The notes under the pieces: model-generated
The model's input: only the letters and a program-made list of their open reading frames with translations
Told to the model about the DNA's origin: nothing
Database searches by the model: none
NCBI GenBank assembly: GCA_905178155.1
Contig: CAJINV010000001.1
Coordinates: 12,073,832-12,137,831, forward strand
Length of the DNA stretch: 64,000 nt
From: Amoebophrya sp. A120
Lineage: Eukaryota > Protista > Dinoflagellata
Direction of reading: 5' to 3'
Program-made: the position numbers and the translations under genes
Shown: one piece after another, positions 13,022 through 64,000 of the stretch
How positions within the stretch are numbered: position 1 is the first letter of the stretch
Layout of the letters: each line of letters starts with the position of its first letter

Positions 13022-16000
13022 ATGCCTCGACGTAGCCAAGAACCCTGCGCGGAACCAGAGGGTGAGGACGGACAGTTCGACGATGAGGAGTTTGTTGGCA
13101 ATGACAACCGAAATTTGCAACGCGGACACCACAACGAAAATCCAACAACTACCGGAGCCGCAAGTGGGAGCCAAGCGACGTCGCGCTCCCAGCACCCGCC
13201 GACCCCGGAAAAGCCGATGCTGACCCTCGGCGCAATGTCGGACGATTCAGACTCCGAGGACGACGAGGAAAGGAGTGGCAACGGAACGAGTTCGTTGTCC
13301 AGCACCATCGGCTATCCTGTGCAAAAGTATCGTACTCGTAGTAATCGTAGTCATGCATTACAAATCTTTATCCCAAGGCAAAACAGCATGACAAATTCCA
13401 TTTGTCATGCTGAGCGAATTTGTATTGCAATTACTACTAGTACGATACTTTTGCAGTTCATATCGGCGATCCGCGTTCACGGCAGCGGCAGAACCGCGAG
13501 CAGAGGCGGTCGTCGAGAAACACGCGGAGGTCGCGGCGACATGAAGACGGACAGCAAGTTGCGCGCACGCGGAGCCGCGGGGACAAGCGCGCGGAGTGGC
13601 AGGTCTTGCACGAGCAAGAAGCCGCACGCTTAGCGAAAGAAGCACAGAAGGCGTTCCACAAGACTGCGTGCAAAGTTTTCCAAGCACTCATGCTCGCTTC
13701 CTGCCTGGTTTTGCTATCCGTCCTCGCCTACCACCAGTACCTGCAGCTGCGACAACAGGCCGCTCACGGGGAGAATTCTTTACCCGGCAGCGGTTCGGCA
13801 GTATTTCCAGTGGGGAAGGGCAGAAGCGGCGCGCGGGAGCAAGCGCGAAGTATCGTCTTGGACGATCGCAGCGACGTTGGCAGTGACACTGACGACCCGC
13901 AAGAACGGGGAGTACAGAATTCCAAGCGCGAAAAGATTCGGCTGTCGCGGAAATTCGAAGAGCGGTCGCGCGGTTTCTCTACGGATCATGTCACTCGCCG
14001 CGCATCATCGTCCTCGACGGGGTCTTCCCGCCTTCCGCCCGACCGACACAGCGGCCGCAACTCCCGCAGCAAGGGTGGGGCGACGCGACGCCACTCCTCC
14101 CCCGGTACTGGTCGCCGCCCGTCCCGGCGCAGTGGTCGCGGCTCGGCGAACTGGAAGCGCGGCGCGTCCGACGGTGCAGCTGGTACTACCACGGTCGCGT
14201 TGGTAAATGGAACTATTGCCGGCGCTTCCGGGACGAGACCGCCACTAGATGACGGCGCGGCCTCCAGTACGGACGGAGGATGCAACAGTGCGGATGACTA
14301 CTCTTCTACAGAAGAGGACGACGACACAACTGACTCGGACGTGGACTCGGCCTTTGCTGGCGCCCAGAATGAGGACGCGTCCGACCTGGAGCTGAACACG
14401 ACCGCGACCAGCCGCCGGACGAGCAATCGCGGCAACTGCAACATGTACGCGAACAAGAACAAGCGGCCCCGGCGTACGTCGAAGAAGTACGTGCACTCAA
14501 AGACGAAAAACTCGGTCGTCCACAACTACTTCACCATTCAGCACATGAGCGACGAGGCCGGACGCTACTTCTTCGGGAACGCCGCACGAGCGGCGGGTTT
14601 CGGAGGCGGGGGCGGTAGTGCGGGTGCGCAATCATCTTCGCAGGCCGCGCCAAACTTCCAGTACACCCAGCAGCCAGGGTCGTCCACGGGACGAAAGAAC
14701 GCTGATGAACACGACAGAAGTGCAACGCCGGGCGATGGTGGCGTGGACGCGGGCGTCCCAACAAGAACACCCTCCAGTGGAGCACAACAACATGACAGTT
14801 CGTCAGTTGTGTCCTCTTCCGTAGGTGGCAACAGTGAAGATGTGCTAGCACGGAGGAATCAGCAGGAGCTTTCGGGAGTTCAGAATATGCGGGCTAGCAC
14901 GCCCGGAGGTGCTACTCCTTCGCAATCAGAAGTAGTCGAGTCGGGTTCAGGGAACGGGGAGACATTCTTTTCGGCCGCAAGCTCGTCGATCGGCGGTGAC
15001 GACCAAAGTGGATCCGGGCGAGGGTCGCCAGCCTTGGAAGACCAGATTTCGGACACGTCGGATGCACGGAACAAAAAGAAGCGCGCACAGCAACTGGAGA
15101 AGCAGCTGCAACTCGCGCTACAGCTCGGAGATACGTCCAACCAGCCGGCACGGACGAGCGCAACCTTGCTGCCCCTTGCGGATTATGTTCCTGGGTACTT
15201 CAGCTTAATACTTCTTGCGCCATAGGTTTAGATAGATAGAAGTAGAAGATGAAAAACGCATCTGCAGAATCCATCCATGATCGCTAAGATTCATATGTTC
15301 ACTTTTGGTTTCGACTTTTTTCCGCCCAACAAGCTAAAGCGACAGCTAAAGCAGATGCACTCTTCTTTCATGAACACTAAAGTAATTCCGAACCTCAACA
15401 GAAACGGCAGCAACGAGGTTGTCATGCCTGCTCCTGGAACACACAACTTCACGCATTCGGGCGCAATCGTTCCCGTAGTTGTTGCTCAGCAGACTGCTGA
15501 GAGTCTCGGATCTTCGTCCGCAGCCCCAGCACTGCGAAGCGGCCAGCTGGCCCTGGAAGACGCACCGCCAGCAGCTCCGCCGTCTCCCGTGGGAGTGCTA
15601 GATTCCGCGAACCCGCCGCAGCCGCCAGCATCTCCGGTGGGGATACTTGACACCTCTGGTGGATCTGCAAGCTCTCAACGACCAAATGCAGGCAGCTTGC
15701 AGCATTCAGCACATCTCTTCTCATCAATCCCGCCGCAACCGAGTGCGCCACTTCCACTCGTCGATCCCGCTGAGGTTCCCGTTCCGCTTTCCCGGCCAGG
15801 GGAGGTGGATGCTGATTTGGTTGAGACGAGCGATGCCGCTGCGGATAAAGAGCCAGCTGATACTTCTAACACCAACAAAGCGGATCTATCTAGGGAAGCT
15901 GCTCGTGGTCCAGAGGATGGCACTAGTAGTACCGGACTGGAGGAGGTGCCGTCCGCTACTCCGCTTCTTGACCAGGCCGCACCTTCGGAAGGCGAGGGAA

Positions 16001-19000: not shown

Positions 19001-20772
19001 TTTTTAGGAACAGCACAGACCACGATGAAACTGACGTGGGACAGAAGCAAGATACACCCGGCAGCTCTAGCACCGGCCCTGCGTCCGCCTTTGCACCGCA
19101 GCAGGAAGCGATGCCCCCTCCGCTGTGGGCCGGAAGTGCCGCGAGCAAGGTCCGCAGTGGTCACCGACTGGACCAGAACACCTACTGCGTGACCGGCGAT
19201 GCCTCGCCGGACCAGTCCCGCGAAGAGTTGCGTGTGCCGAATAAAGCACCGTCGCCAGAGAAGATCCCCTTTGTCGGCGCCAGCAGTATCAATAACTTCA
19301 ATCCGCCGGAAGTGCTGTCGAAGACGAGAAGCAAGAAGCGCTCCACGGGGGTCGACATCGAGCAACTCGCCAAAATCGATTTCTCCGCGGCGAACAGTGC
19401 CATCCTGGGCACGTCGCCGGAGCAAATTTCCTTCTGGAAGACGCTGCTGTTAGAGGACCCCCAGGAGTGGGACTCGCTACCGGCCGTCTCCTATCAAATG
19501 TAAAAATGTCTGGGTCTGGAAGAATGCATGTTTGTCATGCTTGTCTGGCATGACTCTTAAATCTGTCATGCACGTTACCCAAGAGCTGCGTTTTTCTGTG
19601 ATGCAGAAACGCAGTTTGTCATGCAGAATAGGCAACACCTACACCTAGAAGCTCAGAAACTTGTCATGCTGAGCCAGCATTTGTGGCCTCATCATGAGAC
19701 GCCGCCCAGCATCACAAGTTTCCAGATCCAGACATTTTTACATTTGATATCTCCAAACCGGGGCTGAAGCAGAGTCAGCTGTACGATCGACTGCTCTACT
19801 ATGGAAGCGTCAGGTTTGAAATCGTCAAAGTTCAAATAATTCGTAATGCATAAAATGCGACACAAAAAGTGACTCTATTGCAGAGGACCCACGAGAGGCA
19901 GATTATAGTCCTGGCAAGGGTCAAAAATTGGCCTGCTAACTAGCATGACAGAAAGCAGCTCTTTTGCTCTAAACCGCATGACAGACTCGCTTCCAGGATT
20001 GGGAAAATTTGTCATGCACCGACTACAAACTGTAGGTCTAACTGGTATCCGTTTTATGCATGACAAACTATTTCAACTTTGACGATTTCAAACCTGACAC
20101 ATCCATATCTACCAGTGCCACCAAAAGGAAACCGAGCGGTTTTTCCGCATGGAGCCGAAGAAGCAGGAAACGGGGGCCGCGGGCATCCTGAATGCGCTGT
20201 TCCAGGTGGGGGGCGCGGGCGCCCACCGCAAACCGGGGAGCGAAAGAACCTGCACCATGGTAGACGCGCGGGGGCTGCCAAAACCACTGAAAAATTGGGT
20301 TCCGCTCAACGAACAGTACGATGCCTCGTTCACCGTGCCGATTGGCCACGACCAAGCGATACTCGAACCCTCCGGCCTGGGTCACGATCACCAGTACAAA
20401 ACTAAGTGGAACATGCAGATCGAGCGGAACCCACTCACAGGAGGCAGTATTGTTCTGTTGATTTTCCTATTTTGGTTTCAAAGACGTTTGTAAGTAACTT
20501 CTGCTGTGAATCTGAAGGCGTTTTCAAGAGCAACGATAGGTATCAATGAAGGACCACAATCATGATCATGCATAGGCAAACCCAAACGGATGAAAAGTTT
20601 TTTCCGCGAAATCACAGGTCCACGCGTTGTTGTGAAGCGGGAGAGCGTCAGCGAAACCGGAGACCGCAAGGAAAAGGCGTACACTTTGGCACAGCCCCAA
20701 GAAGCCGCGCGCTTGGCGCAGAAGCTCAGCATTCTTCTGAATAACGAATATAGGAATCTCCAGGGTATGTAA
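13022..20772 (+). CDS. Very large low-complexity hypothetical protein with one N-proximal transmembrane segment; multi-exon
   Basis: ORFs 12953, 13606, 15277, 20149 and 20590 join in frame through non-canonical inserts (13313, 19492, 19800) and GT-AG introns 15195-15401 and 20447-20575. Hydrophobic ALMLASCLVLLSVLAY near 13684-13731. No recognised domain; both ends uncertain. Confidence 0.65.
13313..13462. mobile_element. Family-B introner (150 bp), TSD TCGGC
   Basis: TAT...ATA; inner IR tgcaaaagtatcgtact/agtacgatacttttgca; TCGGC at 13308-13312 and 13463-13467; removal gives STIG-DPRS in frame with ORF 13606. Confidence 0.92.
19492..19749. mobile_element. Family-A introner (258 bp), TSD TCTCC
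   Basis: TIR tatcaaatgtaaaaatgtctgggtctggaa / ttccagatccagacatttttacatttgata; TCTCC on both sides; removal eliminates the stop at 19503 (LPAVS-KPGLK). Confidence 0.93.
19800..20107. mobile_element. Family-G introner (308 bp), TSD TCTAC
   Basis: TIR tatggaagcgtcaggtttgaaatcgtcaaagtt / aactttgacgatttcaaacctgacacatccata; TCTAC at 19795-19799 and 20108-20112; removal gives RLLY-QCHQ in frame with ORF 20149. Confidence 0.93.
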
Positions 20773-22435: not shown

Positions 22436-25400
22436 ATGAGTAGGGCACAGAACAACACTCTTTCCGGGCCGTGTTCCAGCCGACGGCTGGCCGCGCACAC
22501 TTGTTGTCCAGTACAACAACTGTGGCCATTTTTACTACTTGTCTTCCTCGTCTTCGCACCAATGCCAACAGTCGCGCAGCAAGCTCTGACCATCGAGGAG
22601 GTGTCCTCCCGATCGCCGTACGTCAACGCTTTTCCCGTCCACTTGCGGTTGACGTGGCAAACCAACATTCCGACCACCAGTTTGGACGTGAAGTGCTGCG
22701 TGACTGCTGTGAAGGGCACCATGGACAGCTCGCGGACCGAGCTGTACCTGGACCTGCGCACCGCCAACAACGGCGTGTCCTTTGACGCCGGGCAAGCGAA
22801 CTGGCACTTTCTGCCCCGGATCCCCTACTACCTGAGCGACAACACCACCCAGGCCACCGCGTTCCAACACTGTGGGTTGCTGGACCCGAGCATCGAGCTG
22901 TACTTCGACAGCGACAACATCCGGCAACTGCGGAATCCCGAGATCTCGGTGTACCAGTTCACGATCCCCGGGTCGCTGATTACGGCGAACAACCCGACCC
23001 TGGTCTTCGACTTGCGGAACGCGGCGAACCCGCTGGAGGCAAACGCAGACACGGCCGAATTCGCCTCCATCACCGTGTCGCACTCCAATCTGCGCTCCGC
23101 GAGCGGGCGGCGGCAGAACGTGTACCACTGGGCTTCGATGGAGGTGCTGAAGTTTCAGGTGCAGCCGAACTTCTACGCGCAAACTTCCGCCACGTTGGAG
23201 CTCACCTTTCGGTTGCGGGGGTTGAAACAAAGGAAAAGACTGCCGGGCAACAGCTGGATCTCCCTGAACGCGCCGATCGGCTGGAGGTTTTCCCTGCAGT
23301 CGCAGATCGTGGTGTACCAGCCGGACCTCACGAGCGACAGTTTTCCAGTTTTGTTCACCGACTGCGGGAGGATCGGAAATGTGTGCACGGGCGGGTACCT
23401 GGGCGCGCAGTTGTCGGCGACGTACGAGTACAACAACCGCGATTGGGAGTCGCAATTGCGGAGCCTCGTGTTTCCGAACTCTCCGCACGTCGACGCGGCG
23501 ACGTATTTCGACTACAGTCAGAACACCAGCCAGGTGTACGTCCTTGGTCAGGCGGCCGGGAACGAGGTGGTTACGTACGTGAATACGACCTCCTGGGACA
23601 GCTTGCCTATCAAATGTAAAAATGTCTGGGTCTGGAAAATTGCGAGATTTGTCATGCAGATTTTCCATGACCCATGAGGTCTGGAATGCGGGGCCTAGCA
23701 TGACAGAGTCTGTGAGGTCTCTGCCATGCCTATCCCGCATGAGAAACTACCTCCCAACTTGGTCGAAAGTGGACAGCTTTTGGCACTCATGCAACACAGA
23801 TTTTGACTTTTGCACTATTTGGATTTAGCATGACTTTTCCAGACCCAGACATTTTTGCATTTGATATTGCCCATGGCGGACCCAACCGCATGGTCGGCGG
23901 TGCCGGCGCAGGCCCGGTACAAGCGGGCGGTGATTCAGGATGTGAACACGGGGGATTTGCAGTTCTCGGTGGACGACACGGTGCTGCTGCGCGTCAGGGT
24001 GACGAACGTGGAATCTCCCGGGAACAAGGCAAGCAACGCTGCGGACGAGTTGGCGATGAACACGTGGACCTTTCACTACGGGTTGATCCAGTCCACCGCA
24101 CTGGACAAGAGACTGGCCACGGTCACGGTACGGGCGCGCGACGTGATGCTGGAGGCGATGGAGGTGAGTGTGAAGGTGAAAGGCTTTCAGTCGTCCGCAA
24201 CGACGCCCGATGCCTTCACCATCTCCTCGGCCCCCTATGCCTCACTGGTGCAGCTGGTTTTCACCGTGTCAAAAGCAATCGCAACGAGCAGCAGAAAGAA
24301 CTACTTCTATCTGTGGACGCCAGCGGTTTCTGAGCAAGGAAACACGTGGAAATTTTCCAGCAGCAATTGCAAGGGCGATCTCGGGGTACTGAACTGCTAC
24401 AATCTGGATTTTGCCTCGGCGGGAACGAATTCGTTGGTCCATTCGCTGGCGACGAGCTACTTCACGGTCTTTGGCGAAACAGTTTTAGATACGACGTCTG
24501 GAGGAAGTGCGTTGCAGTTTTCTATGTTCGCGACAAGCCCGAAACCTGGGTACAGTTCAAATGCGAATTGGCGGCTCTCTTTGTCCGAGGATGGGACGAC
24601 TTTCGCGAAAATTTTGAATCACGCCAACGGGGTTTCGCACGCGAGTCTGACGCTCGTCGAGCTCCAGGATTTCAACGCGGTCAATTTGAATTTCATCTCG
24701 ATGCACACCAGTGCCGTCACCCCGCCCCCACTGTCGTTCGCGCCGAAGTTTAGCGTGTCCGCGATCCCGGCCATTCTCACCACCAGCACCATTGTCGAGT
24801 TCCAGTTCCAGCTGCGCAAGTTGGACTTGGCCAGAACGAGTGCGCGGGCGACGTCAGTAGAAGCCACCATGACGGGATTGCGGCTCACGGGCCCGTGTGA
24901 AATCAAATCCTACAAAAATGGATTCAACTTAGCCAAGGTGGAAACCGGAATCGCCGATTCCGGGCACACGCTTTTTATTCCAATGGCGCACGTAAAATTG
25001 AGCAGCAACAACGATGCTAGGATTATGGTAGAAGTTGAGGTGTGCGCCAGTGCTTTGGCGCCAGCGAATGCAGTGTCTCTTGGGCAACCGGATTTTGGAG
25101 CAGCAGTGGGAACTGGAAACGCGTTTTTGTACACAAACGCGGAGGTGGCGGGGAAGTGGAATCTAGAAGTGATCGGAACGGGCAACGCGGTCCTGGATCT
25201 CGCGACGGTCGCACATTTTTCCGTTGCGACGCACGCCTGGGACCAGCGGTCCTCTTTTTCGGCCATTTCGGAGAACAGGGTAGTCTTCCAAATCTACCTA
25301 CCCGCCACGACGTCGCTAGACCCACTCACGTTCACGATCCGCGTCAACGGCTTGACCCTCTCTGCCTGCACCCTGGACCGGGTCCCCGGATCCGTGTCCG

Positions 25401-28400
25401 AGTTCCCGACGAATACGGCATCAGTGGAAACTTTACTCTGTGCGGAATCGTCTTCCGGTTACTACTTTCAGCTGTCCCAGATTCCGGTGACGAGGAGCAT
25501 GTTGACGTTTCAAGTGCGAGCGACGTTTCCGACCCCGGACGGTAGCAGTGTGGAGATCTGGGAAAGCGTTTCCCGCCCAAATACGACCGTGACGACCACG
25601 CTGAGACAGCACGCACCCTTGAGGATAAATTCCGGCCCGAGCAGCAGCAGACGCTTCAGCCAATGCGGTTCGCAAGTATCGCTCTCGAGCTCCGTCGTGG
25701 ATCCCGTAGGAAATGTGGTTGTGGTTCAGCAAACTGCCGCAGCTCCTACATCTTCTAGTTCCAACACGTCGAGCAGCGCCTCGGCAAGTCTTGTCGCGAG
25801 CACAACAACAGTAGCGCCGATAACGAACACCGTGGCGGGCACCATCAGCGAGAAAGACCTACTCACCACCAGCCCCTCGATTTACCCCGCGCAACACGCG
25901 TTGGGGCAGTACTTCAACCAGCTGCACAGCGGCAACAGTCGGGTGCGGATAAAAACCATTCCGTCGCTGGGAAACGCATACGTCTTGCAGGACGACCAGA
26001 CGCAGGAATTTCTCATGTGGTCCCCCCTCGAACCGACAGACAACGTCTGGCTACGGGGCGGCTACAGGTTGGCAACGGTGTCCGCGAGTTGCAACGGGCT
26101 CGCCGCGGAGAGTTCCGCTCTATACGGGGACGTGGACAAGGACGCGGCGGACCAGGCCGACGAGCTGTGGCAGACGATGATTTTGATCGTGATTCTCGCC
26201 CTCGGCTTGCTGTTCGGATTTGCGCTTCTGTACAATCTCGCCTTCCACCGTGAGGACTGCTTCTCGCGGTTGCGCTTAATCCTGGTGCTGCGCTACAATT
26301 GGAGCGGCAATCTGATGAGCAAAAACTACTACGATTACTACGGCGAGGAGGTCGGAGACGACGTCGCCCTGACCTATCCGAGCTACTGGAGCATCGCGGA
26401 CGAACGGAAGCTCGCCAAGGTGCAGCAAAAGAGCAACAGCGCGTTTCGCGCACTGGCCAACGGGCCGGCGAACGAGAAGCCGGCCAAGTCGAAATCCAGC
26501 CAAGATTGGCCCTCGAAGGACGACTACTACATCCCCGCTTTGCCCCCCGGGGTCGATGTCTACGATCTCATGGACCAAGACAAACAAAATTCCCCCGGGA
26601 GAAACAATGGATCCCTACCAACCAATATCGCTAGCAATTACGCCGCGAGCAAAGAACGCAACCGCAGTGGAAGCACAGTTGGGGAACAACATCAAAGGAA
26701 GAACAGCCTGCTCAGCCTCGAGGGAATTCCGCCAGACTTGAACAACAATGGGACGGACCCCTCGCCCTTACCGAGTCCGTCCGTCGGCAGTGACCACTAC
26801 CACAGCAAATTGAACTGGGCGCCGAAGCGCACCATGTCAACACAGCAGCGCTCGAACACCGGAGACAAGTTGGAGCAGCCGCCGAAGAGGCAGAGTTCGA
26901 CTGGGTCTCCATTGAAGCAAGCGCCGAGTTGCAAATTTCACATCTGCGACCAGTCGGTGGTGGAGGGGGTACAGCGCATGTTGGACGAAACGTGGAAATC
27001 AACCGCAACGAGGGACCGAAGACGGCTCGCCGCGCGGATTGGGGGCAGCGCGCGGGTCCCAACGCGGTTGGAGGTGGGCTACGTGGCGCGCGTGGAAAAC
27101 ACCGCCCTCTGGCGGCAGTACGCGGGCTTGCGTTCCTCGATGCTGCAGCTCAGCCGCGGGGTGGACCTGAAAATCCCCGCCCACAAGCCCATACCCCTGT
27201 CGACCAAGACCTGGGAGGCTGCGGGCTTGCCGCAACCGGAGCTGTTCACGCCCCTGAACGAGTTTTTGTTCTTTCACGGGACCTCCCCCTCCGCCGCGGA
27301 CAGCATCGCGAACGAGGGCTTCAAGCTTTCGCTCGCCGGAAAGCACGGGGGGTCGATGTACGGTGCGGGCATCTACGCGTCGGAGTCCTGCACTAAGGCG
27401 GATGAGTACTCGCACGACGAGTGGCTGGAGGACGACCGGTACTGCGCGATGCTGGTCCTCCGCGCCGTCGCGGCCCGCGTGTACTACACGGCGGACCCGC
27501 ACCCGGACTCCAAACACATCGAGTCTCTGTGCAAGTTCAACCGGTTTGACTCGGTTTTGGGGGATCGCGAGAAAGCCCGGGACACCTTCAAGGAGTGGAT
27601 TTTTTTCAAGCCGGAACAGGTGTACACCGAATACATCATTCGCTACAAGCGCAGGTACGACGTCCGACCGCCGAGTTACGGAGCGAAACTTTTGCACAAC
27701 GTCAGCTACCGGGCGTTGATGCCGGCCGGTCTCGGGGGCAGCTTCTCCGGCTTGAACGCGTCCAAGTACCACAAGCAGATATGGGCCGAGCACTTGGCTG
27801 CGGAGGAAGATTTGAAGATGAAAAAGAAGAAAGACACGACGAAAATTACGGTGGACGTCGAAGACGCCAAGGGCAAGTACACAGCGGACAAGAAGAACAA
27901 AAAGGCCGATGTGGTGAAGCGCGCGAGCAGTGTGGGCGGCGTGTTGGACGAGGAAACAACCGCACGCGATCGCGAGGATAGGAGTGGTGCCAAGCGGTCC
28001 TCTTTCCTGAACCGTCCTCCCGGGGAAAGAGACAATGGCAGCAGCAGTAGCAAGGACAAAAACCCCACCCCCAGCACGACGTCGACGGACGGTGGCACAG
28101 CGGCAGAGCAGCCAGGGGGGGTGAGCAAGGCCAAATCGATCTCGGAGCAAGTCAGGGAGAGAGAATTGCTGCAGCAGAAAGAAAAGGAAAAACAAGAAAA
28201 CAGGGACCGCAAAGGCAAAATCGCGACGGATAGCAGCTCAGCAGCTGCGGCGATAACCGCAAAATTGGGCGGAAATAATGGGGCAGACGACGATAAAAGA
28301 AGGGAAAAAGCTGCGAAAGAAAACAAGAGAGACAGCAAAACGTCCCGGCAGAAAAACAGCCTCACGGTCGAAAACGTCAAGCGGCAGAGCGTGAACCTGC

Positions 28401-28702
28401 TCCGGGTGGAGACGGACACGCCGGATACCAACAGCAACCGCTCTTCGGTACCCTCAAGCATCCTCGAAGGGACGCACGTGGCTACGACCCGGGTTCCAGT
28501 GCCCTCACCGAAACACGAGAAAAACTCGCGACTGCAGACCGAGTTCGCCTCGAGCTCCTCCGCTTCCGACACCGAGCACACGACCAAAGTGAAATCTCCC
28601 CAGCGGGAACGAAAAGCGAGACTTCAAGACATGTCGAGCGGGTCCGATCTAGAGGCAACGCGGAAAACGCCGTCGAGCTACAGGGCAGGGCGGACGAAAT
28701 GA
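22436..28702 (+). CDS. Single-pass membrane protein with large N-terminal region and C-terminal PARP-family ADP-ribosyltransferase domain
   Basis: ORFs 22436 and 23855 join after removal of insert 23608-23871 (WDSLP-MADPT). Signal-like LWPFLLLVFLVFAP; TM MILIVILALGLLFGFALLY (~26177-26233); PARP motifs FHGT (27272-27283), MYGAGIYASE..KADEYS, FDSV, FKEW and QVYTEYII. Confidence 0.85.
23608..23866. mobile_element. Family-A introner (259 bp), TSD TTGCC, internally inverted relative to other A copies
   Basis: Family-A TIRs; TTGCC at 23603-23607 and 23867-23871; internal atgcctatcccgcatgagaaa is the reverse complement of the ttgtcatgcggaataggcat seen in other copies. Confidence 0.95.
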
Positions 28703-37100: not shown

Positions 37101-38368
37101 GGTAGTGGTGAGCGAGCCAAGGTAATTGCTCCCGCTCTGCGAAAAAAAATCAGGATACCATTCGAGAGCGAGGAAGCGCGGGAGCTAAACAAATTGATTT
37201 TCGAGACAATATACTTCGGCGCGTGCGAGGCATCAATGGAGCTGGCAGCAAAGAACGGCCCGTATGAAACATGGAAGGGTTGCCCGGCTGACAAAGGTAA
37301 TATGCAAGCTTAAGAATTTTGCTTGAGAAAGAAAATCATAATTTGCTCACCTCGTCCGCAGGGAAATCTTAGTGCTGCTTTTATTGAAGTACTACAAACT
37401 AACGATGATCTTTCTGTCACGCACCCATATCCAACCTGACAATCGAATCGCGACACAGGTAAACTTCAATACGACCTGTGGGGCGTGACACCAACGCCAT
37501 TGCACGACTGGGCGGCTCTAAAGGAAAAAATTGCGCAGCACGGCATGCGCAATAGTTTACTGCTTGCCCCGATGCCAACCGCCTCCACGGCACAGATTTT
37601 GGGAAACAACGAATCTTTTGAGCCATACACGCAGAACATCTACGTATTGAAGACGTTTTCCTATAATTTTTTGACATTGATGACGCCGTGCACGTGCTGC
37701 ATTTGATGGAAAACATTCAAAAGTGACTATCGTCTGCTGGATTTCTCACCTCGCGATAATTTTATCAGGTCCGTCGTGTGCTATCCGGTGAATTCGTGCA
37801 AGTGAATCGGCATCTTTTGAAGGACTTGATTGACAGGGGGCTCTGGAACCAGGACATGAAAACAAAGCTCATCGCGAACAACGGGTCGGTGCAAACGATT
37901 GCAGAAATCCCATCCGACATGAAGGAAATGTACGTGAAAAGATGTTGTTGAAGATGAAGTCAAAGTTTTTAACAGCGTGGATGCCTTTTGGGTTTTGTGA
38001 AGCCGTTCTGATTTCCTACTAATTATTGTAATTGCGAAATAAACAAAAACCACCGCAGATACAAAACGGTCTGGGAGATCAAGCAGAAGCGCATTCTCGA
38101 ATTAGCAGCCGACCGCGGTGCGTTCATTGACCAGTCGCAGAGTCTCAACGTGCACATGACCGGTTGCACGACCCAGAAGCTTTCCTCGATGCACTTCTAC
38201 GGCTGGAAGCTCGGTCTCAAGACTGGGCAGTACTACCTGCGAACGAAGGCGGCTGTGGAGGCGATCAAATTTACGGTCGATGTTACCGACACGAAGAAAG
38301 CCCAGGCAAAGCTGAAGGCGGAGCAGGATGAGAAGAGCAAATACGAGTGCGTGGGGTGCGGCAGCTGA
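34170..38368 (+). CDS. RRM1: Ribonucleoside-diphosphate reductase large subunit (class Ia)
   Basis: ATP cone [49 protein letters not shown] and C-terminal ECVGCGS. GT-AG introns 34448-34602, 34947-35097, 35523-35647, 35904-36079, 36948-37153, 37297-37458, 37644-37768 and 37930-38058, plus three non-canonical inserts. Confidence 0.97.
35142..35292. mobile_element. Family-D introner (151 bp), TSD CCATG, in RNR
   Basis: TAT...ATA; IR aaatttcccgtacacgtacaa / ttgtacatgtacgggaaattt; removal restores [20 protein letters not shown]. Confidence 0.93.
36176..36325. mobile_element. Family-B introner (150 bp), TSD GGACC, inverted orientation, in RNR
   Basis: tatgcattgcaaaagtaacgtact...agtacgatacgtttgcacagcata; GGACC on both sides; removal restores [17 protein letters not shown]. 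Confidence 0.95.
36374..36609. mobile_element. Family-C introner (236 bp), TSD ATCCG, in RNR
   Basis: 39-bp TIR with 1 mismatch (tatggcgttctcaaacgttaca...); ATCCG at 36369-36373 and 36610-36614; removal restores [12 protein letters not shown]. Confidence 0.96.
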
Positions 38369-42600: not shown

Positions 42601-45328
42601 AGAAGGAGAAGCTCACCGGGGCACAGTTGTTTGAAAATTTGAAGAGGCTGCTCATCAAGAAGTATCGGTCCCTGTCCCTCGCGTGGAAAACTGCCTTCGA
42701 CGTGCAGGGCCGAGGCCACTGCGGGTCGCAGCACTTTGCTGCGGTGTGCCGCGGGTTGGGCTTCGAGGGGGCGAATAGCGTATGGCGGGAGGTGGTGCAG
42801 TGGCGCTCAAAGAGCGGTTTGTTGACCTACGCGGATCTCGACCCCGAGGGTGCGCAACTGATCTACGAGTTAAAAGCCAGGATGGTTGACAAGTAAGTAC
42901 ATGCTTGCAATAGACGAAAATTGTAAAGTTATGCGTGAGACTGCTCCTTCGTTCTAGAAGTATCGTGGAAGATGTTTATGTTGATCAACATGATTTTTGA
43001 TCAACATGATTTTTGATCAACACGCTCGTGCACCCCAATAAACAAGGTATCGCGACTTCGTCACTGCCTGGGTCGTCGGTATCGATATGGATGGCAGCAA
43101 CCGCGTTTCTGAGGCCGACTTTGTGAATACGGTATCTAGTGGCAAATTTGGTGACTTTTCGGAAGTGGAATCGCGGCAGCTGTTCCGTTTACTGCGCTCT
43201 GCGGACAAGAAGTTCCTGCAGCTCCACGATATCGACGTCAAAGCGGGTCAACAGCTGATGGACGGCAATCTGCCTCCCTATGTGGACCAAATGAAGGCGG
43301 AAGCGAGGAAGCAGCTCAGTCGCGGCATGAGCCGGGAAAGGAGAACCGAGTTTTTGGTCAGGCAGAATTCGCACGAGGTATCTTGTTATCATTCACCTGA
43401 TCGTGTCATGAGCCCATAAGCGCGAGTACCTTCTTCTTCTGTGTCTCTCTGCCTTTTGTTTTCGCTGTGTTGATGAAGTATCTATTGAATGTTGTCGCTG
43501 GATTCCATTCTATTTGCACTAGATCCACGCCTTCCGGACGGAGTTTGCGCAGCACAAGCGGCAGCAGCTGAACGCTAAGGATGAACGGCGGCAGAGCCGG
43601 GACATGGGGGCGAGTTCCAAGGAGGAGTTCCTGAGCTTTCTGAAGCGCAAGTACGGAAACCTGCCCCGCGCCTGGCGCACGGCCTTCGACACGGACGGCA
43701 ACGGGAAAGTTTCGCAGCAGGAGTTCTTCAGTGTCTGTCGACACCTGAACGCCTTTATCGGCGACGTGAGCAAGTTGTTTTCCGAGTTCGACGTGGACCA
43801 GAGCGGCATTTTGTCCCTCGCGGAGGTCGACCCGGCGGCGTGGCGGATTTTGTCCAATTTTGAGGACAAGTGTCTCGAGGCGGTGGCTGCTTCCTCCTCG
43901 CGGGGGGCGGTAGTGGTCCAGCCCCCCTCTGCGTCCACGACGATTGGCGGTGCGCAATCCGGGTCCGACGCGTCGGAGCCAAGCGGTGCAGCTGTTCCCC
44001 GTGGGCGCACGGGAGCGTTGGCGAAGTGGTGGAGCGTGTTCTTCGCCGATCAGGATTTTGCGGAGCACGACCTCCTGCGCCGTATGCAGGACAACAGCGC
44101 GGTGACGGCGACAATTCTGAAGATCGATTTCACCAGGTTCCAGGCCATCTGTGCGAAGGATTTGAATTTGCACAACGAAGTGACGGTCAGGAAGCTGTTT
44201 TCCTACTTTGCAAAGGAGGAGGGATCCACGTTTCTGACCGAAACGGATTTTAAGGCGATGGACATCCCGAAAATGCGGGACATGCGCGAGCGCAAGCGTC
44301 GTAGCAGCAACGCATTTGGGGGCGGCGCGCGATCTCGGAGCACGTCGCTCCAAAGCTCAAAGCAGGCGAGCGCCAGTCCATCCGAGAACGAGGGAGCCAG
44401 CAACGTCGTGAGTCCTGCGGTCCCGGAGGAGGGGATTGTCGGTAGTACAGCCGGGGCCGCGGCCACCGAAGTGTTGAAGGCCGCAAAGCCGGAAGAAGCG
44501 AGCAAGTCGGAGGAAGAAACAGATGCATATCACAAGAAAAAAGTGTTACAGTTACACATTTGTTGGAGTTTCTGCATCACAAATTTTCTCTGTGTGGCAG
44601 GGAAAACTTGTAATGCGAAGATCATTAGGGAAAACAGGAAGGAAACGAGGCTCCCAAGCATTTCCTGCATGAGAAAGGTTATCTGTGTTGCTGGTCTTGC
44701 AACACAATGTGTAACTGTAACACTTTTTTCTTGCGATACTGCAGATGCCGACCACAGCAGCAGCACAAGCGCCGAGGCAAGTGGAGGTTCCAGCACGGAG
44801 CCGGAACCTGCAGCGGATCAGGTCGGTCTTGCAAAAAAGAATGACGCCGATGTTCTTGGAGCGAGTGCCAGTGAGGAAGAAGATCCTATCTTGGGAGCCT
44901 CACAGGAAACCGCAGAAGAGGAGGAAGTAACGAAACCAGCAGGAGAACAGGATCCAAGTGCTGCTACAATAGACAAGGCTGAAGAATCTTCTGCTCCGGA
45001 GGGCGGACAGGAAATTATCATTCCTACTCGATCTGCAGCGAAAGATGACGAAGAGCCGCCAGCAGCAGTAGAGGCTGCGACCACCACGACAACGTCCGAC
45101 ATTGACGAGTTTTGCGTGACCTTCGTCGAGGCGAATGAGGGTGACTGCAGCCGCGCGTGGGGCAACCTCTTCGGCACCGACGAGGATGTCGAGGAAGCCA
45201 AGTTTGTCGACTTTTGCAAGGCCGTGCGGGCGAAGGGGTTCCAGGGCAACTTGAAGCTTCTGTGGACCAAGTTCGGTGGGACGGATACACTCTGCCCCGG
45301 TGACATGGAAGAAAAGCTGTTCTTCTGA
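39673..45328 (+). CDS. Coiled-coil plus multiple EF-hand-like repeat protein; multi-exon
   Basis: Repeated units KKYRSLSLAWKTAFDVQGRG, DMDGSNRVSEADF, KRKYGNLPRAWRTAFDTDGNGKVSQQEF and FDVDQSGILSLAE; N-terminal heptad-rich exons; three introners and several GT-AG introns. Not every internal junction was verified. Confidence 0.7.
39793..40054. mobile_element. Family-A introner (262 bp), TSD GCAAA
   Basis: Family-A TIRs with the right end mutated to AAA; GCAAA on both sides; removal gives KDSK-KWTEL. Confidence 0.92.
40092..40241. mobile_element. Family-B introner (150 bp), TSD TTTTC
   Basis: tatcctgtgcaaaagtatcgcact...agtacgatgcttttgcatttcata; removal gives SVFS-ELQQKDQLE. Confidence 0.92.
42981..43022. 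repeat. 16-bp tandem repeat (about 2.6 copies) in an intron
   Basis: ttgatcaacatgattt repeated at 42981, 42997 and 43013. Confidence 0.8.
44528..44738. mobile_element. Family-E introner (211 bp), TSD ATGCA/CTGCA, stop-free in frame
   Basis: 33-bp TIR tatcacaagaaaaaagtgttacagttacacatt with 1 mismatch; AT-rich island inside ORF 43604; element plus TSD is 216 nt. Confidence 0.9.
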
Positions 45329-47230: not shown

Positions 47231-47326
47231 TTCACCCCCGTTGCCGCAGGCCGGGAGCTCGCGCTGGTGCCCTGCCCTCCCAAGAAGTGGCAACACATTC
47301 ATGGGCCCCGCGCGGCTGAAGTACAT

Positions 47327-47439
47327 AACCAGTAGCGCCGCCTAGGCCTCTGCGCGGGGCCAACCGCAAATACGCGGCTGGGCCAACCAGTAGCGCCGCG
47401 TGGGCCTCTGCGCGGGGTCAACCGCAAGTACGCGGCTGG
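47327..47439. repeat. Two tandem ~58-bp copies
   Basis: aaccagtagcgccgc...ggcctctgcgcgggg.caaccgcaa.tacgcggctgg occurs twice. Confidence 0.75.
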
Positions 47440-51800: not shown

Positions 51801-54346
51801 TTTGGTTTTCTTTGTCCGGTGTGGTTCCTAGGGGAGGGGGCCACGTGGTGTGGTTTGGCTCATGGGGCCGCCTCTTCGTGGCCATGAGCCAAACCCCTCG
51901 GGCCCCCGCTCCTTTGCATTTGCCGGGGGCATCGCGCAGCGGCCCCGCTTCGGGAAATCAGGCACGCGCGACGCCGGGGCGTTTTGGTTTTCCAACCCAC
52001 ACCCGCGGCCCCGGGCGGCTAATGATGAGGGTAGTCCCGGCGGTAATTTCCGGGGTTAATCTCACCACAACGAAATCGGGAAGGTTTCGCTGGTTTTGAA
52101 ATTAAACCAAAAATCAGCCCTCAGATTAGAATATGAATTAGACCACAAATTACCCCCAAAACCCACGAAATTAAACTCCGCCCGGAAAACAATCACTCCG
52201 CCGGGCCACTTGGTGCTCAGTCGCTCGGTGCCGTTGGTCATTGGTTGTCTTGCTTTTTCTCGACACGCCGCCCGCCAGCAGTTCCCGCCCACTTGTGTTT
52301 TTTGTGTCTTTGGGTGGACTCCCTCCGGCCGCTGCCCTTTTCAATTTGCCCCGAAGATTGGGGGGCGGCGTTCTGGAAACCCACAAACAGAAAGCCCGCC
52401 GGGGCAGTGTTGCGGCCCCCGTTTTGTTTTGGTGGGGGCCTCCCGTGCGCAGGCTCTTTCAGCCGGCCCCGGGGTCTTTCTTCTGTGCCGGGCCACCCTT
52501 CGGCGCCTTGCCCGGCGCGCGCCTCCCCTCATGAGGGGCGCAGGGGGCCCTACAGGGTGGCGCCCGTGGTGGCGATGTGCCTTCGAAAATATGGCGGTAC
52601 CCCCGGCGCGCCTCCTAATCTGGCCCCTTCGGCGCCTGCTCCCTTTCGCGTTGGGGATTAGCCACCATTCAGCCAGGAATTAACGAAATAGCTTGCCACG
52701 GGCCGGCTGCCTGACGCAGGCAGAGGCCGGCCAGCGGCAGCCGGCACGCACGCACCGCAGGCAGAGGGAGACGGTTGGCACGCAGGCAGAGGCCGGCCAG
52801 CGGCAGCCGGTTGGCACGCAGGCAGAGGCCGGCCAGCGGCAGCCGGCAGGCAGAGGCTAGAGTCGGCCTGGCAGGCCGGAGCGGGGCAAGCAGCTGGCGC
52901 GGGGTTGTCGAAAGCCGGCGCGCGAACGCGCAGGCACAACGCCCCCACTGACATCGGGCCCCCTCTCCCTGTCTCCTTGCAGTTTACTCAGTCACCGACG
53001 TACCGGGCGCAACCGACAAACCCAAGCCCAGGCGAGCCCAGCAGGGCTCGCCCCGAGGCTTGTTTAATATTAAAGAAGAGTTACGACCCACTAGCATCCC
53101 TAAAATCCTTTTGCCGGAGCCGGACGAACAAAAAGTATAAGTCGACGAAAATGCATAGTGTATTATACGGTGTGCAGTAGATGAAGTGGGACGTAGTTGA
53201 AACTGAAAGTAAGAACGATGAACAATCGAAGTGAAGTATTAACGGTGAAGAAACTACATCTACTCGTTTTACCAATCTGTCATAGGTGAAGCCGCACTTC
53301 AAGGTCCTGGTCCCCATCATTCCAGAGCAGCCGAACGGCCCTTCAGGGGCCTCGCGAGCTGCCATAGCCATGTCTGCTTACGGGACCAACAACCCTGGCT
53401 CCAAACTGCTGGTCCTCTCCGACGCCGATATATCACAAGAAAAAAGTGTAAGTATACACTTCTGTGTGCAGCAACATCACAAACTTGCTCTGCATACCGG
53501 AGAAAACTTGCAATTTAGAGTTCATGAGAAAATAAACCACGTCTGAAGCTAGGCTCCTCGTGAGCGTATCCGGCATGACAGAGCTTATCTGTGTTGCCTG
53601 GAATGCACCACCATGAGCAACCGAATGGCATTTTTTTCTTTGCATAAACCATCGAGCGCATGGACTATTTTAGCTTGAGCGGAAATCGAGCGACCTTCAA
53701 ACAGTCCGATCCGTATGCGGTCTTTAGAAGGCCTCCACCGATCACGCCTCCGATCGGCGGTGGAAATCAGAATCCCTCCCAACCGGCCTCGAGCCCCCCG
53801 CATTCGCAGCCGGACTGGAATTACAGTGCTGGGCAGTACGGAGTACACCACGAGGAGGTACCGGTGGGAATCGTCCTGGGGCTGGTATTTGGGTTCTACC
53901 TGCTGCTGGGCTTGGGTATTTGGGGCTGCGTGTGCTGGACCACGAAAAGAAACCGCGAAAAAGGCGAGCGAGAACTCGCGGAGCAGAAGAAGTTGGCGGA
54001 AGAGAATCGGCACTTGCTCTACAACCAGTACCACACCATGAACGCTTTCAGCAACCCCTACGAAAACGGCTTCCATCAGGCTGCTCAACAAGAAACCACC
54101 CCTGGATCGACAGATGTTGGCGCCACAAACAGTGGAGCGGGAGGACCAAAAAGTCAAAGCAACATCCATACCTTTGGCACGCTCCAGGGCGGCGGCGTAA
54201 GTGGGGTGCAGCACCAACAGCAGGCCGCGCAGCAACCGCTTGCACAGATGTACGGGGGTTCGAACAACAACATTTACGGCTTCAACAACAGCGCACTGCA
54301 ACAACCCGCGATCATCAACTACGGCGCTACCGATCACTATGCGTGA
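48879..54346 (+). CDS. Membrane-anchored peptidase S51 (dipeptidase E/cyanophycinase)-like protein; multi-exon
   Basis: Signal-like LAGLLFLLVTDATVA; VLNLGGG, FAYSAGAVVIG and LKLLGPYQ|VKPHF across GT-AG intron 50289-53285; C-terminal TM VGIVLGLVFGFYLLLGLGIWGCVCW. Other probable introns 49272-49387, 49711-49972 and the insert at 53431. Confidence 0.6.
50373..50662. repeat. Foldback-like structure: ccttaag units on the left, cttaagg units on the right
   Basis: About 4 copies of aact(c)nttaag at 50373-50422 and about 8 reverse-complement-like ct(t)taaggg units at 50563-50662. Confidence 0.7.
50770..51470. repeat. GC-rich minisatellite, ~37-bp unit ggcaggtaggacagaggccagcggcagccggcccgcc
   Basis: About 9 near-identical units at 51060-51400 with degenerate flanks; a related block lies at 52700-52880. 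Confidence 0.88.
52700..52880. repeat. Second block of the ggccagcggcagccgg minisatellite
   Basis: gcaggcagaggccggccagcggcagccgg occurs three times. Confidence 0.8.
53431..53646. mobile_element. Decayed family-E introner (216 bp)
   Basis: Left end tatcacaagaaaaaagtgt is identical to the 44528 copy; shared internal aaaacttg and ttatctgtgttgc; right end catttttttctttgcata; TSD not recognisable, but removal of 221 nt joins ORFs 53286 and 53660. Confidence 0.75.
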
Positions 54347-57779: not shown

Positions 57780-59300
<1,521 letters not shown>

Positions 59301-60166: not shown

Positions 60167-63100
60167 ATGGCTGATTCGGCGAGTGTAACGTCGACGGTGA
60201 CGGCGTCAGCGCTGAACACGCCTCGGGGGAAACACGATCCGAATAAACCCGACTATGAGGTGCAGACGCACTCTGGCGTTCCGAAGGAAAAGAAAAAAGT
60301 CGTCAACTATGCGGTGGGGACTACAGGTAATGCTAGCTCGACTAGCGAGATTTGCTCCTACAAGGACGAAATACAGGCCTTGCCCTTGTATCCACACGTT
60401 GACATCATGAAGTAGGCCGAGATGAAGTGAGTTCAAAAGAGATTTTTTGTATCGTTTCACATCACAACATTGACATTTCCAAAAAAAACAGTCGGGCACC
60501 GTGAGACCTTCGGCGACAACCTGCGACTCAGTGCAGGGTACCCGCGGATTTTCTTCCAGACCACGTATCAAATGTAAAAATGTCTGGGTCTGGAAGAATG
60601 CAACTTGTGATGCGGATTCTGGAACAGGCCAAAAATCTGTATTGCGTAGTCAGCAAATTGTGCCAGATTTTTGTCTCCAGAAGTGGGCATTTGTCATGCG
60701 GAATAGGCATGGAGAAGCTCAGCTGCCACAGAGTTTGTCATGCTCTGTGTGCATTCCAGACCTTTTTGTAGATGTAAAAAATGCATGACACATGTCTGAT
60801 TTCTACCAGACCCAGACATTTTTGCATTTGATACCACAACGCAGGTGACTATAGAGCTGATGGTGGAGCGGCCGGCCGCGGTGATCTGCCAGTGCGTGGA
60901 GGTGCCAGACTCGGCACGGAAGCACGACGCGTACCAGTACGCGGATGCGAGTTTCGAGAAGTCACAGACGGTGACGATACGGACCCTAACCCGGGAAAGG
61001 GACCTGCTGATTCAGCGTCTGAGGAAGAAGATGGAAAAGCCCGGGCTCGACGACGCGCAGGACTCCGATGAGGACGAGGAAGTTCTGAAGCGCGACGTCA
61101 CGGACACGGGGCGGGAGAAGCCCTACGTCAAGCCGATCAGGTTTGAGGCCAACCTGCACGGCTCGCACGCCCGGCCGAAGTTTTACGAGCAGTTTCACTT
61201 CGCCACGCCCATGCTGGTCCGCTTCCACGCCGGGCACGTGCCGAAGACGCTGCCCCTCGTCGGGCTCAAGGCCGACGGGCAGTACGAGTTCTACGCGACG
61301 GTGATTGACGACTCGCTCGTTCCGTTCTACCGGAAGATGGTAAACGAGACCATTCTCGCTTCCTGGATGGTGCTCACCGCCTGGGAGGTGGATATGGCCT
61401 CCGGGACGAACAAGAAGAACCAGAAGCAGAGCGAGGGGCTCGTGTCCAAAGCCGGGCACCAGCGGATCAGCAACATCAAAAAAGCCTGCACGGAAACGTC
61501 CACGAAGTTCCCGTTCGCAGCGGACCAGCGCTACCCGTCCCACCCCCTGCACACGGAGCTGTCCTCACTACCGCAGCCCTGGAACCTGGAGATGATGTCC
61601 GAGAGTTTGCATTTCTACGTGAAGCACGGCCGGGATTTGAGTCCAGCGAGCAAGGCGAAAAACAAGGACGCGGACGACGACCTGCCGCCCGGGTTTTTCT
61701 CGCGGAAGGGCGTTGATCCGGAGCAGCTAACGACGCTGGTGTCGTTTGCGCGACTGCGGTTCGAGACGTTGTCGAAGCACCCGAAGTTCTTGGACATCAG
61801 CTTCGTGCCCAACGGGGTACGGTTTCGGCTCGACCGCCCGAACTGCATGGTCTACTGGGTCCCGGTCAACCCGGCTCGGGACGAGATGGCGCAGAGGGTC
61901 CGGGCACAGAACGCGACTGGAGGGGTCCTCGCAAATAAGAGCGCTTCATCAAGTACATCGGCTCTGGTCCCCCCGACCGCGAGTTCGGTGGCTGCAAAAA
62001 AGATGAACCAGACACATTTAAACGAGCACGACTTCTCTAATACAGGGATGGCGCGAACAAGACGAAACGACGAACTGGATTCACTCATATCATCCCCCGG
62101 TTATGAGACGACAGAATGTCCTTTGCTCTCCCTCCCCCCCTCATTTGATGTCATGCGAGTTTAAAAGTTGTGATGCAGATGAAGCTGCTACGAAACTCTT
62201 GTGATGCTGTCTCAAAGACGGTGCCGTTCAAATCAGGGAAAGAGACTCACTTGTGCCCCCTCATACCCGTGGACGGTCGGACAAGAACGTGTTCGATGAG
62301 CTACTGGAGCAGGACGAGGAGGAGAAGGACCGCGCCGCTGCCGCGGACGACGCGGAGAACGCAAAGTCGACCGCAAACAAAGAGGACGCCGGCTCGCAGG
62401 CTACGAGCCCCTCCGCCGTCTCCTCCTCGCCGGCTGCCCCCTCGGCGCCGGCCGCACCGGCGCCCGTGCCCTACAAGGCCCTGGATCCGAGACTGAAGCC
62501 CTACGCACTCGCGGCCGCGGGCGATCTGGCGGGGACCGGCGCCCCCGACAGCGACGACGAATTTGCCGTGAATAAAAGCCTATCAAATGCAAAAATGTAT
62601 GGGTCTGGAGGAATGCAACCTGTGATGCTGCGTTTGGATTCCAAAAAAATCTGTATTGCATGAGCAGCAAATAAGGGAGTGCAATTTTTGCTACGGGAAG
62701 AGGGCACTTGTTATGCGGAATAGGCATCAAGAAGCCCTCAAAAAATCTCTGATGCTAGGGCATGCATCACAGACGTCACGGCTCATTTAAAACTTGCATG
62801 ACAAGTCTCAGAATCTTCCAGACCCAGACATTTTTGCAGTGCATAAAGCCCGAAGGAGCAGGCCCCCGACCAGCACTTCGAAGCGAGTCTGATCGTCCGC
62901 GATAGGGCGATCGCGGCGGGGCACTACCTAAACGTGACCGGGGAGAAGGGGTTCATCACCCTCCCGCCCGCCTTCCAGGGCCGTCCGCTCGACTTTGTCG
63001 CGGAAACCATCCCCGACACGACGCGAGCGAAGTCCGCGGTGGAGGTGCAGCGACTCGGGCCCGGCAGAGACAATTTGAAGGACGTAAAGATCCGGAAAAT

Positions 63101-64000
63101 GTTTGATCCGTTGTTCTCCTCTCTCCGGCCGCGCTCCATGATGCCAAAACCGTACCGCCTCTTCTACCAGCAGCCGCAAGTGCCGGAAGAAGAGCTGGAA
63201 GCCACGATATCCTCGCCGTTGCGCACCAGAACTTCTTCCGGAGGTGTTGGCGGGGGACCAGCAGCAGCCCCCGGTGCAGCTGCCAGCAAGCTGTCCCCGT
63301 TTTCAACATCTTCGCCGTTCGGCAGTCGGCGCGCCACGAGGAATTCAATTTCCGTGAGCGGCGCCGGCCCCGCGGCCGCAGACAAAAATACAACTCCCGC
63401 GGGGAAGTTTATCGACCGAAAAGACGCCAAAGGGTATTTGGACACCCCGCAAAGCGCGTACGCCCCGGGCGCCGCGGTGCACTTTGAGAAGACGCCGCAA
63501 AACTTGCAGCGGTTCGCGCTGCGCCGCACCGACATCGTGAGTGGCACGCCGGATGCGGAGCTGGTGCAGACCTTCGGCCCCGACGTCGTCCCGGAGGTCT
63601 TTCCCTACTCGCGGAAACTCGTGTCGGTGTCCGAGTCGCTGAAGACCAGCTACGGCCGTCCGCCGGAGCACATCAAGATGCAAAGCAGCTTGGACGTGGA
63701 GCTGCAGGAGCCGCGGCCCTTCGTACCACAACATACGGTCATCACGGACGAAAATCGGTACGAAAACGACGGTATGCATGGCAAAAGTATCGTACTAGTA
63801 TAAATCGCATTACAAATTTGCTCAGCATGAGAAATGCAATTTTTCATGCTGTTTTACCTTGGAACGGAAATTTGTAATGCATGACTGCGATTACTACCAG
63901 TACGATACTTTTGCACAGGACAGACGGCGAGGACCCGAACGCGGTGAAAAAGGCGAAGCCCTACTACTACCAGCAGCTGCAGTATGGGAGTGTCAGGATC
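60167..64000 (+). CDS. Hypothetical protein, 3' end outside the window; carries five introners
   Basis: GT-AG intron 60327-60491 and inserts at 60566, 62102, 62581 and 63773 join ORFs 60167, 60845, 62253 and 62934 in frame; strong GC3 bias; no recognised domain. Confidence 0.7.
60566..60833. mobile_element. Family-A introner (268 bp), TSD CCACG/CCACA
   Basis: Family-A TIRs; removal of 273 nt gives RIFFQTT-TQVTIEL. Confidence 0.92.
62102..62265. mobile_element. Degenerate family-F introner (164 bp), TSD CCGGT/CCCGT
   Basis: tatgag...ctcata ends; internal tgtcatgc and two tgtgatgc; removal of 169 nt joins ORFs 60845 and 62253. Confidence 0.78.
62581..62845. mobile_element. Family-A introner (265 bp), TSD AAGCC
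   Basis: Family-A TIRs; closely similar to the 39793 copy; removal gives VNKS-PKEQ in frame with ORF 62934. Confidence 0.93.
63773..63922. mobile_element. Family-B introner (150 bp), TSD GACGG, inverted orientation
   Basis: tatgcatggcaaaagtatcgtact...agtacgatacttttgcacaggaca; removal gives END-GEDPN. Confidence 0.92.
63983..64000. mobile_element. Probable left end of another family-G introner, truncated by the window
   Basis: tatgggagtgtcagg resembles the TIRs of the 19800 element (tatggaagcgtcagg and tatggatgtgtcagg). Confidence 0.55.

Follow-up and report, generated by a model that had tools for sequence, protein, structure and literature searches.

A 64,000-nucleotide (nt) stretch of the Amoebophrya sp. 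A120 genome (contig CAJINV010000001.1, positions 12,073,832 to 12,137,831 of the forward strand; hereafter the window) carries small transposons, non-coding and with inverted ends of ∼30 bp, that are found both forwards and backwards within coding sequence; spliced transcript contigs lack them, through exact removal, in both orientations. They are the non-canonical A120 introners of Farhat et al. 2021 (PMC7789003), who describe inverted repeats that start with TAT and continue with less-conserved bases and at least three A, direct repeats of 3–5 nt, and removal without GT-AG; the window elements match in their TAT ends and A run, 5-nt repeat, repeated families, and RNA-supported removal. Non-canonical introns exceed 60% in A25 and A120, and their removal mechanism is posed there as an open question; the text of that paper, in the parts available, leaves the mechanism open and is silent on orientation, selection for pairing, motif phasing, and the position of the join. 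The elements are thus already known; their orientation independence is apparently unreported. Literature searches, which included the accessible parts of PMC12130899, PMC9860276, and PMC11453091, did not find the orientation of Amoebophrya introners, and Farhat S19–S25, the Gozashti datasets, and the paper of Roy et al. as published in Current Biology may bear on it.

The window elements and their removal from transcripts

Elements in the window were defined by a strict finder (TAT...ATA ends, a 5-nt repeat, and at least 19 of 30 end pairs), which returned 13 elements, and none in each of eight shuffles; complement-only and reverse-only controls gave one each. BLAST added two degenerate copies (1376 and 53431, elements being named by their first position), for a total of 15, with lengths of 150–322 nt. 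A 5-nt target-site duplication (TSD) accompanies 14 of them, exact in 11 and with one mismatch in three, and is absent from one. At least six end types occur, all sharing TAT, TG at positions 8–9, and an A run at positions 11–14, so that both ends carry the motif TAT-N4-TG-N-AAAA. In folding predictions each strand forms a terminal stem, with 21–35 end pairs in the 13 intact copies. A further motif, YTGTNWTGC, is common to the interiors of all six groups in both directions, and is found 57 times in the 3355 nt inside elements versus 11 times in the 60645 nt outside. The elements are repeated in the genome, since summed depth in a DNA-like sequencing run (X1) is far higher at elements than at flanks. 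The 15 copies are listed here, with ORF denoting open reading frame.

1376..1697, + strand: diverged family A; directly after a likely start codon; repeat mismatch at position 5; host frame inferred
13313..13462, + strand: family B, forward; 5-nt repeat on both sides; removal restores a 711-codon + strand ORF, from which the host is called
19492..19749, + strand: family A, diverged subfamily, forward; removal restores a 1554-codon + strand ORF
19800..20107, unstranded: family E; 45 coding nt downstream of 19492
23608..23866, − strand: family A, inverted; PARP-domain gene; joint supported by P0001 and its homolog P0002, no RNA cover at the joint
35142..35292, unstranded: family C (B-like layout); reductase gene; removal inferred from contig span (662 nt both predicted and seen)
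36176..36325, − strand: family B, reversed; ribonucleotide reductase large-subunit gene; skipped in RNA-like contigs (155 nt)
36374..36609, unstranded: family D; directly before the reductase CSNLC motif; skipped in RNA-like contigs (241 nt)
39793..40054, + strand: family A, forward; P0006 gene; skipped in RNA-like contigs (267 nt)
40092..40241, + strand: family B, forward; P0006 gene; skipped in RNA-like contigs (155 nt)
44528..44738, unstranded: family F; repeat mismatch at position 1; the P0006 annotation carries the residue of the left copy (first base)
53431..53646, unstranded: decayed family F; right end weak and target not duplicated; followed by a likely start codon near 53660
60566..60833, + strand: family A, forward; P0003 gene; repeat copies differ at position 5, synonymously
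62581..62845, + strand: family A, forward; shares the P0003 gene with reversed copy 63773
63773..63922, − strand: family B, reversed; annotated protein P0003 continues across the joint

An earlier, sequence-only reading of the window had proposed that introners occur in either orientation within same-strand genes, and aligning the copies on both strands in the window bears this out. Family-B copies, 150 nt long, carry the exact 10-mer tatcctgtgc at the start of 13313 and 40092, and its reverse complement (9 of 10 letters each) at the end of 36176 and 63773. By BLAST, 13313 and 40092 align on the same strand (80%) and both align to 36176 and 63773 on the opposite strand (76–87%); the interiors aligned alone give the same orientations. 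Family-A copy 23608 is inverted relative to 39793, 60566, and 62581, with end-to-end opposite-strand alignments (69–71%), while its inversion relative to 19492 appears in the interiors only (score 44.5 opposite, −7.5 same). Because the interior of 19492 gives no clear orientation against 60566 (scores of 35 and 35.5), we place it in a diverged family-A subfamily. The host strand is + for all nine copies that the earlier reading named, as it had stated: the basis is RNA joints and GT-AG introns for 36176, 39793, and 40092, annotated proteins for 23608, 60566, 62581, and 63773, and restored ORFs for 13313 and 19492.

The host genes that inform on removal are as follows.

22436..28699, + strand: PARP-domain protein P0001; raw RNA reads show poly(A) behind 28859
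34170..38370, + strand: large subunit of a class I ribonucleotide reductase; encodes 805 aa once eight GT-AG introns and three elements are removed
39673..45325, + strand: EF-hand protein P0006 (1297 aa); contains 39793, 40092, and 44528
60167..64000, + strand: P0003 (1304 aa, extends beyond the window end); contains 60566, 62581, and 63773

Between positions 36090 and 40420, contigs from three of four runs (X3, X4, and X6; X11 has no reads there) skip all four elements by the element plus 5 nt: 155 nt at reversed 36176, 241 nt at 36374, 267 nt at 39793, and 155 nt at forward 40092. The claim that both orientations are removed thereby holds for a reversed and a forward copy of one family. A single copy of the 5-nt repeat is kept at each joint, and contig coordinates there leave exons of exactly 44 and 33 nt with no letters between. 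The same contigs also skip four GT-AG introns, depth falls to zero in two intronic or intergenic bins, and the skipped form is the only one that the three runs show in this interval. RNA evidence thus covers five of the 15 window elements, the four skips and 35142 by span. In contrast to these, DNA-like run X1 has a flat depth of 43–54x outside elements and keeps both introns and elements; its contigs reach 24–30 nt into the element ends, with no break at the flanks. X1 is to be read as the dominant form at an unspecified life stage, since contigs omit rare forms and leave 471 joints out of view. Element-containing sequence of other loci does occur in the RNA runs, raw reads included, which DNA carry-over could explain.

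Deleting an element with one repeat copy restores long + strand ORFs in the window, whereas elements left in bring a stop inside the element in 12 of 15 cases, a frame shift in two, and read-through in one. The reductase ORF after removals has 805 aa and no internal stops, and once 36176 and 36374 are taken out, two of its motifs are separated by 15 residues, the same spacing as in solved reductase structures (6l3r_A, positions 336 and 352). P0001, P0003, and P0006 are annotated proteins that carry the Amoebophrya sp. A120 label and are 100% identical to products of the window; they are gene models rather than transcripts. P0001 is the ORF left once 23608 is removed, with homolog P0002 colinear across the joint (a one-residue gap lies nearby); P0006 runs across 39793, 40092, and 44528, with homolog P0007 colinear over the first two; and P0003 runs, within a single gene, across forward 60566 and 62581 and reversed 63773. 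All three elements of the reductase gene lie within conserved motifs, two of them only 48 nt apart.

Orientation and end signals in a related assembly

For a larger sample, we turned to one metagenome assembly (JACKZZ01 contigs) in which at least 144 loci (L001–L144) matched the family-A end pattern; it is a related assembly, not an established A120 one, and comes with no RNA data; all counts from it are among the matches listed. The loci hold 223 elements, at least one of them a false merge (the finder's single element at L046:1501-2531, rejected). Host strand was called by a codon-position model trained on the window genes and used at a margin of 5 or more, where it was correct in 387 of 392 leave-gene-out trials (480 trials in all); calls for neighbouring elements agree in 68 of 72 pairs.

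Family A is evenly split relative to the host strand, with 50 copies forward, 50 inverted, and 27 uncalled (n = 127; 95% interval 0.40–0.60), and the balance holds at margins of 3 (58:53) and 8 (43:44). Family B has 7 forward, 10 inverted, and 6 uncalled (n = 23). Both orientations occur in five of eight further groups; one other group has a single orientation (5 to 0, 4 uncalled), as do two small groups (2 to 0 each). The tabulation against host strand that the sequence-only reading had proposed genome-wide is available for the related assembly, where family A bears out its expectation.

The ends, too, look the same from either side. Among 190 strand-called related copies, TAT is conserved at 97–100% and A at 84–97% at positions 11–14. 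We found no polar end signal in these copies, the sense 5′ end and the reversed 3′ end being alike at all 30 positions, whereas from position 31 onward the interior depends on which way the element lies; no base exceeds 38% at any flank position. GT..AG is available in any equivalent register in none of the 15 window elements (one gives GA..AG). Among the 190 copies, 12 could offer it where a column shuffle gives 11.4, and 30 could offer G[TCA]..AG where the shuffle gives 28.0, both at chance; an apparent GT..AG excess over the window coding background (12 versus 5.8) was gone against the composition-matched shuffle (11.4).

No extra conservation of the direct repeat was seen, with mismatches at 13 of 505 bases versus 29 of 1391 in the core of the terminal inverted repeat (TIR; p 0.49). 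Mismatches between repeat copies are synonymous in 15 of 23 cases, where the expectation is 23–29% under neutrality, 32–43% if the cut is fixed and one copy is free, and 50–80% if both copies are coding. The excess over the fixed-cut expectation (p 0.001–0.025) suggests that either repeat copy can reach the message. Codon position 3 is the commonest starting point of the target duplication among the 190 strand-called elements (85, against 56 and 49 at positions 1 and 2; p 0.003), and the length of element plus repeat is 0, 1, or 2 modulo 3 in 73, 46, and 71 cases.

Same-strand spacings of the internal motif peak at 31–33, 93, and 124 nt, with a period of 10.6–10.7 bp in the window (p about 0.001, in a test whose family members are not independent) and 10.3–10.4 bp in the related loci. 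We infer from this helical-pitch spacing a protein that binds double-stranded DNA, most simply the transposase.

How the elements may be removed

The account that we prefer, although we give it somewhat less than an even chance, is that the elements are cut out of pre-mRNA by a dedicated cut-and-join system that reads two matching ends and is separate from the GT-AG spliceosome. A DDE-type transposase would insert the element regardless of the direction of the gene and duplicate 5 nt of the target; the insertion pattern is observed, and the enzyme presumed. Transcription of the gene would then pass through the element, and both ends would offer TAT-N4-TG-N-AAAA, with a single stem predicted for each strand that, if formed, would bury the last 30 nt. 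Cuts would fall within the two repeat copies, and the exons would be rejoined so that one copy remains, at a point that may slide; here the product is seen in the contigs and the chemistry is conjectural. The interior, with its phased motif, would likely serve mobility rather than removal. Because the interior flips without bias and without recruiting splice sites, the signals needed appear to be confined to the ends and the 5-nt repeat.

Among DNA transposons, IS3EU and GingerRoot share TA..TA termini with TIRs and have integrase-like transposases, and their TSD is usually 6 bp (PMC10045372) as opposed to 5 bp here; A120 TIR introners with integrase-like homology were noted by Gozashti et al. 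2025 (PMC12130899). Precedent for removal comes from the nonconventional introns of euglenids, which are paired at their ends and removed by unknown machinery (PMC11282704; PMC12501133). Like the elements here they have non-GT-AG ends, direct repeats at the joints, and a likely origin from miniature inverted-repeat transposable elements (MITEs); their terminal pairing has a predicted counterpart here in the end stems, for which selection was not detected. They are excised as full-length circles, and they differ in following the code N3CDG...CH'G N5-6 with a purine opening the next exon, whereas here G makes up 2% at end position 6 and ends are TAT...ATA, and their stems are shorter than those predicted here.

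The sequence-only reading had gone further and ascribed removal to symmetric features, namely TIR pairing, the TSD, and the bidirectional internal motif. Part of this stands, in that both orientations are removed and there is no orientation bias, polar signal, or GT-AG excess. A need for TIR pairing did not emerge, nor a role in removal for the internal motif, whose spacing follows the DNA helical pitch. A hairpin is predicted, but a need for it is not shown, because there is no G.U excess, no energy gain on the sense strand, and little covariation: arms covary at two of six variable family-A positions and at none overall in family B. Positions 4–7 are paired in only 45–85% of the related copies.

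Several of these results weigh against the cut-and-join account. Isolated stem mismatches on the transcribed strand gave no sign of selection for RNA pairing (119 G.U versus 128 A.C, a test that is weak for long stems), and the arm duplex is not stabler on the sense strand (76 versus 88). At element positions 4–10 in L001–L144, A.C exceeds G.U (79 versus 53, p 0.03 uncorrected), opposite to the RNA-pairing prediction. The conserved end motif may reflect the needs of the transposase only, and the analysis turned up neither an enzyme nor an intermediate nor any end chemistry. The RNA evidence consists of contigs from two samples of one study, with the RNA label guessed and no raw read over a joint, since raw runs X9, X10, and X11 reach none and so weigh neither way; the 50:50 count comes from another assembly, without RNA, through model-called host strands; and the synonymous excess comes from 23 sites with inferred frames and could be due to gene conversion with element-free (empty) alleles. 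Finally, A120 has 83 of 89 spliceosome proteins together with U2, U4, U5, and U6 (PMC7789003).

That inventory bears on the next account, to which we assign a distinctly lower but still appreciable probability: a modified, U1-less spliceosome that finds donor, branch, and acceptor signals all within the ∼30-nt inverted repeats, alike in both orientations. In the same survey the U1 small nuclear RNA was not found and most other components were (PMC7789003), and tunicate spliceosomes process non-GT-AG introns (PMC11282704). The sequence-only reading had argued from the polarity of spliceosomal introns, which alone leaves the spliceosome possible: the ∼30 nt at each end are the same whichever way the element lies, and bidirectional spliceosomal introners are known (10.1101/2020.10.14.339549). 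Moreover, conservation of end positions 1–3, 8–9, and 11–14 across families places a U-run ∼11–15 nt before the 3′ end. The polar GT/GC...AG ends of U2 spliceosomal introns are nonetheless lacking here, GT/GC/GA..AG being at chance level, while the eight canonical introns checked keep GTA...CAG and have no element motif. Whatever the register, the cuts would be set off from the conserved ends by 5 nt of arbitrary exon-like sequence, the predicted 21–35-pair stem would cover the branch region, and the synonymous excess counts against a fixed cut. The introners of Polarella glacialis and Aureococcus anophagefferens resemble the window elements as MITE-like introns with TIR and TSD that occur in either orientation and leave the mRNA unchanged; they differ in recruiting GT/GC/GA and AG from the element or TSD (found in one of 15 window elements, and at chance in the related copies), and in their reported orientation bias (10.1101/2020.10.14.339549), compared with 50:50 for family A.

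We consider it improbable that skipping occurs at the level of DNA or transcription, with a transposase-like protein on the ends and phased motifs looping the element out and either the polymerase jumping between the 5-nt repeats or template copies undergoing excision in the expressing stage, much as in ciliates. This would fit the absence of orientation bias and of G.U bias, the sparse arm covariation, and the enrichment of an internal motif phased at helical pitch; both repeat copies also look coding-constrained, as a homology-guided join predicts. Transposition alone explains the phased motifs, however, the dominant form in X1 keeps the elements in contigs unbroken at the flanks, and element-containing sequence from other loci is found in RNA runs (subject to DNA carry-over). 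Internal eliminated sequences of ciliates are transposon-derived and orientation-free, and are removed precisely with one direct-repeat copy kept; they leave the somatic DNA, whereas the dominant form in the DNA-like run here, at an unspecified stage, keeps its elements. To our knowledge, no germline/soma split is known in Amoebophrya. The strong form, in which non-canonical introners are not spliced at all, being looped out of the DNA template with the message joined by 5-nt repeat homology, we hold to be a similarly long shot. If true, such loop-out would join the spliceosome and ciliate genome editing as a third means of rendering transposons in genes harmless.

cDNA artefacts arise where direct repeats flank a stable stem, and all RNA data here are cDNA based. 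Reverse-transcription artefacts can mimic introns (falsitrons; PMC8240250). It is nevertheless very improbable that the mRNA retains the elements, with the skip produced by a reverse-transcriptase jump between direct repeats at the hairpin and ribosomes hopping over the element between matching codons: although every 5-nt repeat holds one in-frame codon and many repeat mismatches fall at third codon positions, five of 23 hit non-wobble positions in the codon at which a hop would occur, contigs of three runs show the skipped form only, reads from other loci do cross element ends, and retention would bring a stop in 12 of 15 cases and a frame shift in two, an essential gene included.

The flippable interior splits the question of mechanism into three: whether a lariat or a circle forms, whether nascent RNA contains the element, and which base is kept at mismatched repeats. 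Sequence-independent scarless removal by any of the proposed routes would add a new activity to those that process RNA or DNA, and it would account for the ability of a transposon to fill genes as essential as that of ribonucleotide reductase.

Other features of the window and of the related loci

Copy 53431, which has no target duplication, may show element decay where removal is not needed. No other window copy fits the notion that broken copies are confined to non-coding DNA, and the related loci lend it no support: the three copies with broken repeats there, among the matches listed, all have coding-like flanks. Three copies of the internal motif at 62148-62210, without element ends, lie within an intron-like gap of the P0003 gene and are possibly an element remnant.

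No transposase was found in element copies (the foreign inserts of long copies were not searched for transposase homology), and a scan of viral contigs gave no matches. Five long copies (L019:1814-2270, L032:571-1051, L033:1815-2445, L050:1501-2472, and L052:1032-1527) are ordinary family copies with foreign inserts of 180–690 nt. In L032, L033, and L050, a duplication of 8–18 nt around the insert overlaps the internal motif, and the inserts end in simple-repeat or A-rich sequence; they resemble retroposed pieces that use the element as a safe site.

Among the host genes, the reductase transcript contig (34170-39257) extends ∼880 nt beyond the stop codon, a long 3′ untranslated region. Run X10 covers only the 3′ part of the PARP-domain gene (27373-28859), with a sharp start at 27373, an adapter-like loose end, and a poly(A) end; its reads likely come from another isolate because nearly all differ from the window at 28443. 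Other + strand Pfam genes are a calcineurin-like phosphoesterase (3339-4429), a DHHC palmitoyltransferase (30073-32007), and a zinc alcohol dehydrogenase (57780-58652). A repeat-rich region holds GC-rich short repeats (46667-47176), CCCCTTAAG repeats in both directions (50378-50661), 37-nt tandem units (50789-52851), and a 109-nt tandem array (55604-56387). Two palindromes without element ends, a perfect one of 34 bp (2045-2113) and a GC-rich one of 67 bp (87%; 56623-56758), complete the inventory.

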